Shown here in pieces: positions 31,301 to 40,300 of a stretch of DNA of 58,225 bases. Within the stretch, counting starts at the first letter, position 1; every line of letters begins with the position of its first letter. Made by a program: the position numbers. This DNA is from a virus (taxonomy: Duplodnaviria; Heunggongvirae; Uroviricota; Caudoviricetes): the IMG/VR virus record IMGVR_UViG_2671180275_000006. One strand, 5' to 3'.

Positions 31301-34300
31301 GGTTGTTAACGTTGCATCCAGCGGCGAGTGGGCGTGTTTACGCGGCTTATGGTGGCGTTTATGTCTGCACGGCGTTGATGTGGCTGCGCGTTGTGGATGG
31401 CGTGAAACTGACTCTTTATGACTGGACGGGTGCGTTGATTGCGCTTTGCGGCATGTTGATCATTGTTGCGGGCTGGGGGCGCACGTAGGAACATAAATCC
31501 ATTTTATCAATAAGATAAGAGGAAGTGTCAGCTGACAAAAGGTATTCTATTTCATCTTTTGTCAACCATTCACAGCGCTAATATACGCCTTTTTTTGTGA
31601 TCACTCCGGCTTTTTTCGATCTTTATACTTGTATGGTAGTAGCTCAGTTGCGTAGATTTCATGCATCACGACAAGCGATGCAAGGAATCGAACATGAAGA
31701 TCGTAAAGGCTGAAGTTTTTGTTACCTGTCCGGGGCGTAATTTCGTCACATTAAAAATCACCACTGAGGACGGTATTACGGGCCTTGGGGATGCCACCCT
31801 CAATGGACGTGAGCTTTCCGTGGCCTCTTATTTGCAGGATCACCTTTGTCCGCAGCTTATTGGTCGCGATGCGCACCGTATCGAAGATATCTGGCAGTTT
31901 TTCTATAAAGGTGCTTACTGGCGTCGCGGTCCGGTTACGATGTCGGCCATTTCAGCGGTTGATATGGCGCTGTGGGATATTAAAGCCAAAGCTGCCAACA
32001 TGCCGCTTTACCAGTTACTCGGCGGCGCGTCTCGTGAAGGGGTGATGGTTTATTGCCATACCACCGGTCACAGTATTGATGAAGCTCTGGATGATTATGC
32101 CCGTCATCAGGAGCTGGGATTCAAAGCCATCCGCGTGCAGTGCGGAATCCCTGGTATGAAAACCACCTACGGCATGTCGAAAGGTAAAGGTCTGGCTTAT
32201 GAACCCGCAACCAAAGGACAGTGGCCGGAAGAGCAGTTGTGGTCGACGGAGAAATACCTCGATTTCATGCCGAAATTGTTTGACGCGGTACGTAACAAGT
32301 TTGGTTTTAATGAACATTTGCTGCATGACATGCACCATCGCTTAACGCCTATTGAAGCGGCGCGCTTTGGTAAAAGCATTGAAGATTATCGCATGTTCTG
32401 GATGGAAGACCCGACGCTTGCAGAAAACCAGGAATGCTTCCGTCTCATTCGCCAACATACCGTCACACCCATCGCAGTGGGTGAAGTCTTCAACAGCATC
32501 TGGGACTGCAAACAACTGATTGAAGAGCAACTCATCGATTATATCCGCACCACGCTGACCCATGCAGGCGGAATTACCGGTATGCGCCGGATTGCCGATT
32601 TTGCTTCGCTGTATCAGGTACGTACTGGCTCACACGGTCCTTCCGATTTGTCACCAGTCTGCATGGCTGCAGCGCTGCACTTTGATCTGTGGGTCCCCAA
32701 TTTCGGTGTCCAGGAATACATGGGTTATTCCGAACAAATGCTCGAAGTCTTCCCGCACAACTGGACTTTCGATAACGGCTATATGCATCCGGGAGACAAA
32801 CCGGGTCTTGGCATCGAATTCGATGAAAAGCTGGCGGCGAAATATCCCTATGAACCTGCTTATCTACCAGTCGCACGTCTGGAAGATGGCACGCTGTGGA
32901 ACTGGTAAGGAGTAAGATAATGAAAAGCATATTAATTGAAAAACCGAATCAACTGGCGATTGTCGAACGTGAAATACCCACCCCGTCAGCGGGTGAAGTA
33001 CGAGTAAAAGTGAAACTTGCCGGAATTTGTGGTTCAGATAGCCATATTTATCGTGGGCATAATCCTTTTGCGAAATATCCGCGCGTCATTGGACATGAAT
33101 TCTTTGGCGTCATTGATGCGGTGGGTGACGGCGTGGAAAGCGCCAGAGTCGGTGAACGTGTTGCTGTCGATCCGGTGGTCAGCTGTGGGCATTGCTATCC
33201 GTGCTCTATAGGTAAACCGAACGTTTGTACGACACTTGCTGTATTAGGTGTGCACGCTGACGGTGGTTTCAGTGAATATGCCGTGGTTCCGGCAAAAAAT
33301 GCGTGGAAAATTCCTGAAGCAGTGGCCGATCAATATGCGGTGATGATCGAACCTTTTACCATTGCGGCTAACGTAACCGGACATGGTCAACCGACTGAAA
33401 ATGATACCGTTCTGGTTTATGGTGCCGGTCCAATCGGCCTGACGATCGTTCAGGTATTAAAAGGCGTCTATAACGTTAAAAATGTGATTGTTGCCGATCG
33501 CATTGATGAACGACTGGAAAAAGCGAAAGAGAGCGGGGCAGACAGGGCGATTAATAACAGCCAGACACCGCTTGGCGAGATTTTCGCTGAAAAAGGCATC
33601 AAGCCGACATTAATTATCGATGCGGCTTGTCATCCTTCTATCCTGAAAGAGGCCGTTACGCTGGCTTCTCCAGCGGCACGTATTGTATTGATGGGCTTCT
33701 CCAGTGAACCGTCTGAAGTGATTCAGCAAGGAATTACCGGAAAAGAACTCTCTATTTTCTCTTCACGCTTAAATGCAAATAAATTTCCGGTTGTTATCGA
33801 CTGGTTAAGTAAAGGGTTAATTAAACCAGAAAAATTAATTACCCATACGTTTGATTTCCAGCATGTTGCTGATGCCATTAGTTTATTTGAACAGGATCAA
33901 AAACATTGCTGCAAAGTCTTACTCACTTTTTCTGAATAATACCAATAACGGCGAGTAAGTAGTACGCATCTTACCTCTTTTTTAGAGATAACCATTATGA
34001 CAATAGAAAAACATGAAAGAAGCACTAAGGATTTGGTGAAAGCAGCAGTATCGGGATGGCTGGGCACTGCGCTTGAATTTATGGATTTCAAGAGTCATGC
34101 GTGTTAACTATTTGATAAATATTAAATTAATTTTTCATTGATTCGTTATGGGGCATGGTTGGGGCAAACTCGCTTAACTGTGTATTTAACAAAGCTACCT
34201 GTGCATTATTGTTTTCAGACATCCATTTTCCGTATACCTGAAATACCATTTGCGCATCTGCATGGCCCATCTGGTTTGCTATAAATGCCGGGTTAGCACC

Positions 34301-37300: not shown

Positions 37301-40300
37301 CAAGGCCAAAAATAGTTTGGCGGTCGTAGCGAAGGGCATCAGGCTGTTTGCGCATTGATGCCGAGATACGCTTCCAGTCTTCGCGGTCGTTGTCGATAAC
37401 TTCTTTTTTTGCCCAGCGATGGATGCTGCCGTCAATGTTTCCGGCATCCACATCACCAGGCCAGAGAGCGTAGGCCAGTTCGTCATCCAGTGTTTTCCAT
37501 GTCTGCTTGTATTCGCGATGAATGGCAGCAATGACCGGGCTGATTTTTCCTGTTGAATTTTCAGTGTACTGTTGATTGGCTCTGGCGCGGGCGAGATCAA
37601 CAACAGACGTGTATTTTCCGGTTTCCTTGCGTTCACCTTCGCGACGTTTTTTCCAGATGCGCATCTCTGCCTGAATTTCGGGCCATTTAGCACCAGGAAT
37701 ACATTTATGCTTAACCCACCCAATGGCGTGCAACTTAAGCTCCGGATACATGGCGTTAACTTCTGGCATTTTCATCAACGCTTCAACGATATGTCCGTCG
37801 AATGTTGCCATGTCTTCCTGCAACAATTCCTGTGCGCTAATAACCATATCAACGGTGATGTTTTCACATGTGTCGAACTTAACCATGACAGCGTTCTGTA
37901 CTTCAGGGGCCAGCTTGTCAAAAGTGACGTTCATCGGATCGGATTCAGTCTCAACCGGGACAAAAGAAGCAGACTCCTCATCCCAGCGGTTTTCCTGCAT
38001 ATATTCAGCATCCCATGAATCGAGGGCAGGGCGGGGTATGCCAGGTTTATCCTCGCAGACAATAAATTTATAAGCGCAGTCCTGAGCAGCCGGATAATGT
38101 TCCAGGAATTGCCAGTGAAATTTTGCTCGAGCACGGCGTTCGTCGCCAGCTTCAATGGCTGTGGCTACAGCCACAGCGCCTTCTTCCCTTGTTGCCAGTT
38201 CGTCAGGAATAGCGGCGCAAATAAAGACTTTACTCATTTTGTTTTAACCTCATGACAGATTTAAGGATGAACAAATCCCTGCCATTGCTGGCATATAAGA
38301 ATGAAACCGGATATTTATTACGGAACTGTTTTAAAGACCTGCCGGGATTTCGATATTATCCTGGTGAATAACTTTATCGACCGGGTAACAGTTACCGGGA
38401 ATTTTCTGTTCGGTTGCTGCAGTCATACACTCCTGCATTGTCCTGTGAACACTGACTGCAATATCAACTGGCACTCCGGAAACAAGAAAAACTGTCAGAA
38501 CAAGCGCAAATGCTGAATTCATTGTGCACATCCTTTTGGCATCAGACGTAAACGAGCCAGCATTGAAACAATGCATATTTTATTTAATAGCTCCCGTTCT
38601 TGTTTTCTCTTGTTAATGGCATCTTCAGTAAATACAGGGTTACTGATAGTGACACCAATTTCAAAACAACCTTCAGACGTATTAACGTTTGGTAATAACG
38701 TTTTCATTATCGCGTCCTCAACAATGAATTTTGTGATGCAGTGCCTGGTGCCTCCAGGTGACGTTAACCAGTTAACAATTAACGTCGGATACAGAGAATC
38801 CACCCATAACACTGTTTTTGGTTTTAACTGTTCCGCGTGCGCTTAGCCGCATTCACCGCATCACAAAATTCACTTTAAAAACGGCGGCAGAGCAGTCACG
38901 GAGTAAAACTGATACCGCCAAACGTCACCAGAAAATTGATAACAGAGGGCGTTGCAGCGGGGTTGTCACTTAAGCGTATGGTCAACCTGACAACTCGGTG
39001 TCCTCAACGGGGAAGGAATAACCCCGCCATACTTACCGCCGCGCCATTTTGCGGGTTGCCACAACCGGAAGCGCACGGTCGAATTAAATTTAACGACACC
39101 GTACAGCGAGACGAACTTCGCCGTGCGCTTTCGTGTTGTGTGCCTGCTTTTAACCACGTCAGGCGAGGTGGTATCCTTAAAATCACCACAGTTTTAAGGA
39201 TTCATTAAGCAATGTCGCAACCACCAATAAATCCGCTTAAGAACATGAAAATTGATTACTGGTATAAAGCGCTTACAGTTGTTGGCGCTGCGTTGTTTGT
39301 CTTTAATGGAACGTCTTTTTTTGACAGATATCCCGTTGTTCCATTGGGTTTTTTGTCCTCCGGCATCTTTTTTATTGGTTTGGGGGAGTGGATTAATCAC
39401 CCTCTCAAAGTGAGATTTATTGGTCCTGGAGTTTGGACTCGTGGATATAATAGTTCTTCGTGCGCACTCGGTATCATCTTCGACATACTTGGTTGTTTCC
39501 TGATTGTTACAGGAGTCGTCAAGTTCTTCTGATGTAAAACCGCAAATGGGGCACGTAACGGGAATTTTGAAAAGCGTTTCTCAGGGTTCCAGAACAAAAT
39601 TTTCTGCGGTCTGATTTTGCTTCTCATATTTGTGCTCCGCGTCATTGTGAGAGCACATTCTTATTCTGAGTGCCTGTTTAAACTCACTGAAGCTGAGAGC
39701 TTCTTCGCCTTCGGCAAGGCCTTCGAAGTATTCTTCGTAAGCCTTTTCCATGATTGTGTCGAAATCCATATCACTCACCTGAGTTTCTTTCCAGCCAGCG
39801 ACGGGCACCATTTTCGGTTTTAAACGTTTTGCTTTTGGTATACGTCATCGCGGTGAACGTACCGTCCTAGTTGGGGAATACGCCACATACCAGAGATTCG
39901 TTGTTGCCAAGATCGATAGTATCCATGCTGACCTCATTTCCCCTTAACGCCGGGGTAGCGGAACTGTTTGCTGAGAACACCGTGCGGTGTCTTGATGGAG
40001 GTAATTTAGTTTTCTCATTGTTTTTCGTCAAGGTTTTTTGATGAGAAAACTCAAGTATTGGCGCAAGATAAAGCCAATACATTGAAATGTAAGGCTTTAA
40101 AATTTTGTGAAGGGATGATTATTGATGCTTGTTGCGTTTGCGAGCCTCTAATAGCTCGGTGAACAGGCGATTAAAATTCTCAACGCGGGCGCGGAGTTCG
40201 CTGAGTTGTGCTTGTTGCTCTGATTTAGGAAGTGCGCGATACAAACGCAGCATCTCTAACTCATCTTCCGATAAGTCTAAGGCACTATCGAGTGAAACAG

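Follow-up and report, generated by a model that had tools for sequence, protein, structure and literature searches.

The 58,225-nucleotide stretch of DNA analysed here (record IMGVR_UViG_2671180275_000006; hereinafter, the window) is a piece of the Escherichia coli chromosome, in which the genes ynfF-ynfE-ynfD-ynfC-speG-ynfB-ynfA-rspA-rspB are found in this order, ending at position 33939. To the right of rspB lie a short fragment of the major facilitator superfamily (MFS) transporter gene ydfJ and, beyond it, genes for a tyrosine integrase (Int), an excisionase (Xis) and a large exonuclease (Exo), which the initial annotation took for the end of a Qin-like prophage inserted in ydfJ and which are the subject of this analysis. 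The feature coordinates given in that annotation all proved right; they are collected, together with those of the other features discussed below, in Table 1.

The ydfJ fragment, read initially as 31 N-terminal codons caught between rspB and the 3' end of int, is identical to residues 1-31 of the intact, 455-aa YdfJ of strain FORC_069, which starts MTIEKHERSTKDLVKAAVSGWLGTALEFMDFQLYS. After residue 31, the open reading frame (ORF) of the window leaves YdfJ and reads KSHAC-stop in phage DNA, and the complete translation of 36 amino acids (aa) is identical to that of K-12 ynfP (b4534). A 28-codon truncation of ydfJ has been described previously (Ramisetty and Sudhakari 2019, PMC6379469).

The integrase frame is, as initially proposed, complete at 431 codons, with no interruption and with both of the expected Pfam domains, namely, Arm-DNA-bind_2 (residues 9-72, E 1.6e-23) and Phage_integrase (residues 206-397, E 4.1e-18). 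The ORF is indeed open over this entire length; the protein, however, is probably shorter, with translation starting at the second ATG (35407) and yielding 426 aa. This is the start assigned by RefSeq to the identical gene of strain S19-651, and a sequence resembling a Shine-Dalgarno element, GAGAGAAG, precedes the second ATG, with none upstream of the first. Alignment to the structure of the Tn1549 integrase (6emy) shows that the catalytic residues R235, K269, R364 and H387 and the nucleophile Y397 are all in place. Directly upstream of int, across a gap of 19-34 bp depending on which int start is used, the initially noted xis-like gene encodes a protein that matches the DUF1233 family of putative excisionases over the full length of the model (PF06806; residues 5-73 on positions 1-69 of 70, E 1.6e-31) and also the excisionase family phrog_539.

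The next gene had been described as coding for a full-length exonuclease of 823 aa rather than a remnant, and the match to phrog_2082 from end to end bears this out. The C-terminal domain of this protein (aa 642-813) belongs to the DEDDh exonucleases (PF16473, Rv2179c-like, positions 2-177 of 177, E 2.4e-67) and contains D646, E648, D746, H796 and D801; the only other Pfam match is to RNase_T, and there is also a match to the PDB chain 8kel, deposited as 'Exodeoxyribonuclease' (E 1.5e-6). The similar size, the phage early-gene context and the match of residues 246-623 to positions 271-600 of the NCBIfam model PRK09709 (E 6e-84) are reminiscent of RecE, the exodeoxyribonuclease VIII of the Rac prophage, and this partial match is the reason why some phage records carry the exodeoxyribonuclease VIII label. 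Membership in the RecE family was nevertheless rejected: the matching region is the central, non-catalytic part only, its 282.7 bits fall far under the equivalog cut-off of 1269, Pfam detected no RecE nuclease domain but the Rv2179c-like catalytic domain in its stead, and no gene next to exo is annotated as a RecT/Bet-type partner in the RefSeq annotation of the identical sequence. Judging from its domain content, the 823-aa protein is an early-left DEDDh 3'-5' exonuclease of the phage, not a RecE-type nuclease. Its overall structure is that of a mosaic, in which residues 1-245 contain no Pfam domain, residues 551-566 include a CxxC...CxxC motif, and the DEDDh domain occupies the place of the RecE nuclease domain.

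Table 1. Coordinates of the ydfJ-integrated prophage end, its flanking genes and the element embedded in terL, with predicted junction sequences.
Feature	Position in window	Strand	Basis or remark
rspB, chromosomal left flank of the prophage	32920..33939	+	RefSeq annotation of identical sequence; Pfam ADH_N, ADH_zinc_N
ydfJ N-terminal fragment, codons 1-31	33997..34089	+	codons 28-31 encoded by the att core
36-aa ORF, ynfP in K-12 annotation	33997..34107	+	31 ydfJ codons, 5 phage codons and stop
attL identity block, imperfect, 18/19 bp, TGAAT(T)TATGGATTTC(A/C)AG	34074..34092		four-site comparison, one indel and one mismatch allowed
candidate arm-type Int sites, P' arm, TGGGGCA-N4-TGGGGCA	34149..34166	+	inside the 3' coding end of int
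tyrosine integrase	34127..35422	-	longest ORF, 431 codons, uninterrupted; RefSeq start 35407 (426 aa)
excisionase, 83 aa	35442..35693	-	Pfam DUF1233; phrog_539
exonuclease, 823 aa	35766..38237	-	phrog_2082, 1-822 of 823; Pfam Rv2179c-like
ydfD, lysis protein, next prophage gene after exo	38331..38522	-	RefSeq annotation of identical sequence; Pfam DUF1482
dicB, cell-division inhibitor	38519..38707	-	RefSeq annotation; Pfam DicB, E 9.6e-40
DicF small RNA	38882..38933	-	Rfam RF00039, 72.5 bits (gathering score, 48)
terL, truncated large terminase gene, ATPase domain only	53830..54825	+	Pfam GpA_ATPase, E 2.8e-72; TAG created at the satellite junction
satellite attL, CTGGATGTAGGG	54816..54827		window against L001 (attB) and L004 (attL, attR)
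P4-type tyrosine integrase of the satellite	54987..56225	+	co-oriented with terL; Pfam Arm-DNA-bind_3, Phage_int_M, Phage_integrase; NCBIfam PRK09692
satellite small helix-turn-helix (HTH) gene	56218..56442	+	weak Pfam HTH_17; JNEC-KY179 counterpart is a helix-turn-helix transcriptional regulator (RefSeq)
satellite BRO-N gene	56502..57080	+	Pfam Bro-N, E 4.9e-20; element runs past the window end
attR, ...CACCTGTGAATTATGGATTTCCAGTTATATTCG...	beyond window		ydfJ codons 32-455 expected after it
predicted attB junction			GCGCTTGAATTTATGGATTTCCAGTTATATTCG
predicted attP junction			CACCTGTGAATTATGGATTTCAAGAGTCATGCG
terL junction expected to be restored by satellite excision			CATTCTGGATGGAGGGGCCGG

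The point of insertion was delineated by comparing attL of the window with attR of strain S19-651 (locus L002), attB of FORC_069 (L006) and attP of the phages HannyBb (L005) and PhiR42_1 (L009). An exact 11-bp core, TTATGGATTTC, is common to attB, attP, attL and attR and occupies positions 34079-34089 of the window. Over 45 bp on each side of the core the flanks are swapped exactly, such that attB consists of the left flank of attL, the core and the right flank of attR, and attP of the left flank of attR, the core and the right flank of attL, the latter being the case in the second phage record, PhiR42_1, as well. The core lies within a longer, imperfect block, which is 19 bp long in attB as well as in attL and one base shorter, at 18 bp, in attP and in attR. 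For ydfJ prophages, Nakamura et al. (2021, PMC8112680) reported an '18- or 19-bp att sequence', with which the lengths found here for attB and attP agree. The initial annotation had expected the core within ~34090-34126; the actual core, or the imperfect block, is located just to the left of that interval, over ydfJ codons 28-31. The reconstructed attB sequence matches uninterrupted ydfJ loci with 99.9% identity, and at least 80% of it is covered by a place in 2010 of the 5426 complete E. coli genomes.

The prophages described by Nakamura et al. as PPydfJ in enterohaemorrhagic E. coli are likewise lambda-like, reside in ydfJ and share the block lengths given above. Their att sequence was also defined from attP, attB, attL and attR, with an O104:H4 strain as the empty site, and the attP of one ydfJ prophage is known from a sequenced PCR amplicon of the attP-flanking region (PMC8112680). 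Unlike the present prophage, they carry loci for type III effectors as well as secondary attB sites, and they are often clustered.

In the phage arms next to the core, we observed a doubled TGGGRCA motif. The pattern TGGGRCA-N3-5-TGGGRCA was derived from the same sequences in which its uniqueness was counted; it has a single match in the 58-kb window, at 34149-34166 in the P' arm, and a single match in the 40-kb attR locus, TGGGGCA-N4-TGGGACA in the P arm, 120-137 bp to the left of the core (L002 23156-23173). These doubled motifs are candidates for arm-type Int binding sites. When the region 33800-39200 was scanned for promoters and terminators, the numbers of matches did not exceed those expected from shuffled sequence, and no informative site emerged.

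We put the probability at about 0.9 that a lambdoid prophage of the Qin family, of the same kind as mEp460, Tritos, HannyBb and PhiR42_1, sits in ydfJ and that the region 33997-38237 represents its attL end. As judged by the four-site comparison, integration is by recombination at the 11-bp core in ydfJ, and the module of int, xis and exo is complete and essentially that of isolated phages. Across the entire int-xis-exo segment (100% query coverage), the window is 99.9% identical to HannyBb (PP925841), 99.6% to PhiR42_1 (PV340562, host ECOR13), 99.2% to Tritos (OV696610) and 94.7% to mEp460_ev081 (LR597641), and all four phages share the gene lengths of 431, 83 and 823 codons. HannyBb differs from the window by one residue in Int (A277V), by one residue in Xis (C80R) and by none in Exo, and the window and HannyBb are 98.5% identical across the 13 kb between attP and the Q region. 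In both HannyBb and PhiR42_1, attP is contiguous and is exactly the recombinant of the attL of the window and attR. The phages differ in the late region (terL is ~73% identical to that of HannyBb over the alignable part), and the copy in the window is integrated and its terL is interrupted. A literature search for the phages Tritos, HannyBb and PhiR42 by name returned nothing relevant, and the mentions of mEp460 are mainly in genome and prophage surveys.

The other end of the prophage is beyond the window, and the initial annotation had advised looking there for the matching attR and the 3' part of ydfJ. Both are found in strain S19-651, whose sequence agrees with positions 1-54827 of the window at 99.98-99.99% identity and in which the prophage is complete, at ~45.5 kb, extending from rspB and the ydfJ stub to attR and the 3' part of ydfJ and including a full lambdoid head and tail gene set. 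Nor is this arrangement rare: the 6-kb segment 33000-39000 of the window is covered to at least 80% in 1972 of the 5426 complete E. coli genomes (~36%). An earlier survey reported that the Qin locus was occupied in 48% of 638 strains, by elements of 11 to 97 kb (Ramisetty and Sudhakari 2019, PMC6379469).

The likeness to K-12 asserted in the initial annotation is apparent from the alignment across the int/ydfJ junction, which is collinear: K-12 matches the window at 28835-35286 and 37471-39098 with 99.2% identity and no gaps. Between these two segments, a 706-bp IS2E remnant stands in K-12 for positions 35287-37470 of the window. As a result, K-12 intQ has lost Int residues 1-46 and, with them, the greater part of the arm-binding domain (of the 385 residues left, 3 are different), xis is missing altogether, and ydfE consists of Exo residues 1-255 fused to IS2 sequence, with residues 256-823 gone. 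Further to the right, K-12 has ydfD, dicB and DicF in common with the window and also, at 96.6-98.2% identity, part of the immunity region and a segment from hokD to ydfO that carries rem, ydfU, ydfT, the csp genes and the lysis genes; altogether, there are six collinear blocks of 96.6-99.2% nucleotide identity. The cryptic Qin of K-12 (b1543-b1579, including ynfP, intQ' and ydfE') has the same insertion point in ydfJ, the same 36-aa ynfP ORF and the att core at both ends, and differs in that relBE, flxA and ydfV are there instead of the replication region and nearly all genes for morphogenesis. These observations support the view that K-12 Qin descends, by deletion, from a phage of the same kind; the deletion is associated with IS2 and has removed the N-terminus of Int, xis and two thirds of the exonuclease gene. 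The K-12-type junction between IS2 and intQ is found in at most 353 of the 5426 genomes, against 1972 with the complete segment, so the complete form of the module is at least five times commoner and K-12 represents the degraded case.

Several RNA elements were detected with Rfam in this part of the prophage, namely, the sok antitoxin RNA beside hokD (44138-44312) and two cspA-type thermoregulator leaders, of cspB and cspI (47607-48030 and 50508-50893), all on the plus strand. K-12 Qin has the same set of accessory RNA elements, DicF included.

As the sequences show, site-specific recombination mediated by Int put the phage into codons 28-31 of ydfJ and split the gene, leaving the 31-codon stub seen as the ynfP ORF on this side and the 3' part outside the window. 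The int and xis genes are both on the minus strand and read toward attL. Upon induction, Int and Xis would recombine the core at 34079-34089 with its identical counterpart in attR, and such excision would restore ydfJ and yield a circular phage with the attP of the isolated genomes.

Several facts weigh against this interpretation or limit it. What supports excision by Int and Xis is comparison of sequences, and the window ends inside the prophage, such that the right half with the late region lies beyond position 58,225. With terL split by an embedded element, the prophage in its present state is unable to package DNA, and an IS3-family insertion is present, beyond the window, in a tail gene of the two nearest sequenced relatives. 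Furthermore, residue 361 of Int is a tyrosine in place of the first histidine of the HxxR box, which is a histidine in most tyrosine recombinases.

This last replacement raises the question of whether Int is catalytically dead. In the alignment with 6emy, YQSRHT of Int indeed stands opposite PHAMRHT of the Tn1549 integrase; yet the Int of the isolated phage HannyBb, which differs only at residue 277, has the same Tyr361, so this residue is compatible with a working phage. Given also that the remaining catalytic residues (R235, K269, R364, H387 and Y397) are all there and that, as the att comparison shows, an integrase of the same type has joined attP and attB precisely, Tyr361 was rejected as an inactivating change, and a dead integrase appears very improbable. 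Even less credence can be given to the notion that the ydfJ-like ORF and the neighbouring frames are chance ORFs or a product of misassembly rather than a true junction. Nothing was found in its support, and it is refuted by the genome matches, the 99.9% reconstruction of attB and the fit of the four att sites: the identical ydfJ/int junction is seen in K-12 and in the top-ranked of the many matching genomes, the 1972 genomes mentioned above cover at least 80% of the 6-kb segment, and all three proteins have full-length family matches.

A more serious objection is that the module only looks intact, that is, that the prophage is grounded, unable to finish a lytic cycle or to make virions, and that int, xis and exo are recent relics rather than a working switch. 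Such an outcome would be in line with the reduction of terL to its ATPase domain at 54825 by the inserted element, with the IS3-family transposase in the tail gene of S19-651 and JNEC-KY179, with the pseudogenes (ydfA, ydfB, a methyltransferase and cspF) in the RefSeq annotation of identical sequence, and with the frequent degradation reported at the Qin locus (Ramisetty and Sudhakari, PMC6379469). However, the interruption of terL has the shape of a helper-embedded phage-inducible chromosomal island (PICI), of which the published prototype excises precisely once the composite has itself excised and replicated (PMC10111431). Moreover, the sister strain S19-651 retains an unbroken attB in its terL, Int and Xis are essentially those of an isolated phage, and late genes are not needed for excision. 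On balance, we consider a grounded prophage unlikely, while giving it real weight. By analogy with the prototype, the interruption of terL alone would not make the prophage dead. We would retain the initial label 'intact' for the int-xis-exo module, not for the prophage as a whole, in which terL is interrupted within the window and the late region is incomplete, as the window ends inside it.

The prophage, its site in ydfJ, the att sequence and near-identical free phages are already on record in the literature or in GenBank, and the interpretation, correct but ordinary, has little weight as a discovery. The exact att coordinates should nevertheless be useful for annotation and for the design of excision PCR, and the region shows that K-12 Qin has arisen by degradation from a common phage, the integration module of which survives in full in about a third of the complete E. 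coli genomes. The only feature of some novelty is outside the prophage end proper, namely, the satellite embedded in terL.

The window departs from S19-651, in which terL is uninterrupted, at position 54827. The sequence at the satellite sites is CTGGATGGAGGG in attB within terL, CTGGATGTAGGG in attL and CTGGATGGAGGG in attR, which places the crossover within CTGGATG (54816-54822), at about codon 330 of terL. The part of the element that is within the window includes only the integrase, HTH and Bro-N genes, all co-oriented with terL. In the 9.49-kb element of JNEC-KY179, these are followed by YlcI/YnfO, Icd-like and DUF4222 genes, a primase and protease/capsid remnants, after which terL resumes. 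The satellite junction is present in 90 of the 5426 complete E. coli genomes, including O157:H7, O121:H19, O145:H28 and O103:H2 strains, and in all matches listed the gene under the junction is that for the terminase large subunit.

The closest parallel is the helper-embedded PICI 11capE (Tommasini, Mageeney and Williams 2023, PMC10111431), which also lies inside a late gene of a lambdoid prophage, in the same orientation and flanked by a short identity block. The full gene order was seen in the related copies, of JNEC-KY179 and O157 F3113, and is the same as in 11capE: int, HTH, the Bro zone, YlcI/YnfO, Icd-like, DUF4222, primase, the single-stranded DNA-binding protein (SSB) and a captured capsid gene. 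In helper-embedded PICIs, the genes fall into four zones, namely, int plus AlpA, the Bro zone, replication and late genes. The primases of 11capE and the O157 F3113 copy are 82% identical. By contrast, the integrases of 11capE and the satellite are only 25% identical over 384 aligned positions (E 7e-23), and the target differs, the satellite sitting in a GpA-type terL. The doubled TGTATTGC motif, located ~132 bp downstream of the attP centre in the helper-embedded PICI clade, has no match in the window even when 3 mismatches are allowed, as against two matches in the 11capE locus, which served as the control. Neither 'GpA' nor the att strings of the satellite were found in the accessible portion of the supplements of that paper. 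The capsid-forming PICI (cfPICI) EcCIEDL933 was set aside as a counterpart, by description only, in that cfPICIs are described as coding for the full set of proteins required for their capsids and the related copies have a single prohead protease/capsid fusion gene.

In its configuration and gene order, the element in terL appears to resemble the helper-embedded PICIs; its integrase is divergent, and its site is apparently uncatalogued. Whether the prophage as a whole is a helper-satellite composite of an uncatalogued kind, characterized by a GpA-type terL, the core CTGGATG, an integrase of 25% identity and the lack of the attP motif of the clade, is a further step, which we propose tentatively and with the odds somewhat against it. 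If that is the case, embedding in a late gene of the helper would have arisen in a second integrase lineage, present also in O157:H7, O121:H19, O145:H28 and O103:H2 strains. In the 11capE prototype, the composite excises first and replicates, and the satellite then excises and restores the late gene (PMC10111431); in a composite of the kind considered here, terL would be restored by excision in two steps, the first of them performed by the Qin-type Int and Xis. With a satellite in the terminase gene, any claim that such a prophage is intact or inducible must allow for two-step excision.

The IS3-family transposase mentioned above splits the tail gene at 9731-10908 of L002 and 43595-44808 of L004, the loci of the two closest relatives. 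The same insertion may be present in the strain from which the window derives, in which case it would block tail assembly.

The window also includes a second prophage (1-23845), which abuts a 28-codon fragment of ynfG (23762-23845). Its late genes resemble those of 933W and include an N4-gp56-type capsid gene and a gene for a 2794-aa LPD38 protein (~10456-18837). Directly after them come early-left genes on the minus strand, coding for ead/Ea22-like, TraR and Ant (22166-22789) proteins, and no integrase gene was found between the late and early-left genes or at the chromosomal junction, which makes for an unusual prophage end. Between the antirepressor genes of this prophage and the ynfG fragment, there are two Rfam matches to sRNA-Xcc1 on the minus strand, at 22830-22915 and 23366-23450, with 74.5 and 53 bits, respectively, the gathering score being 53.

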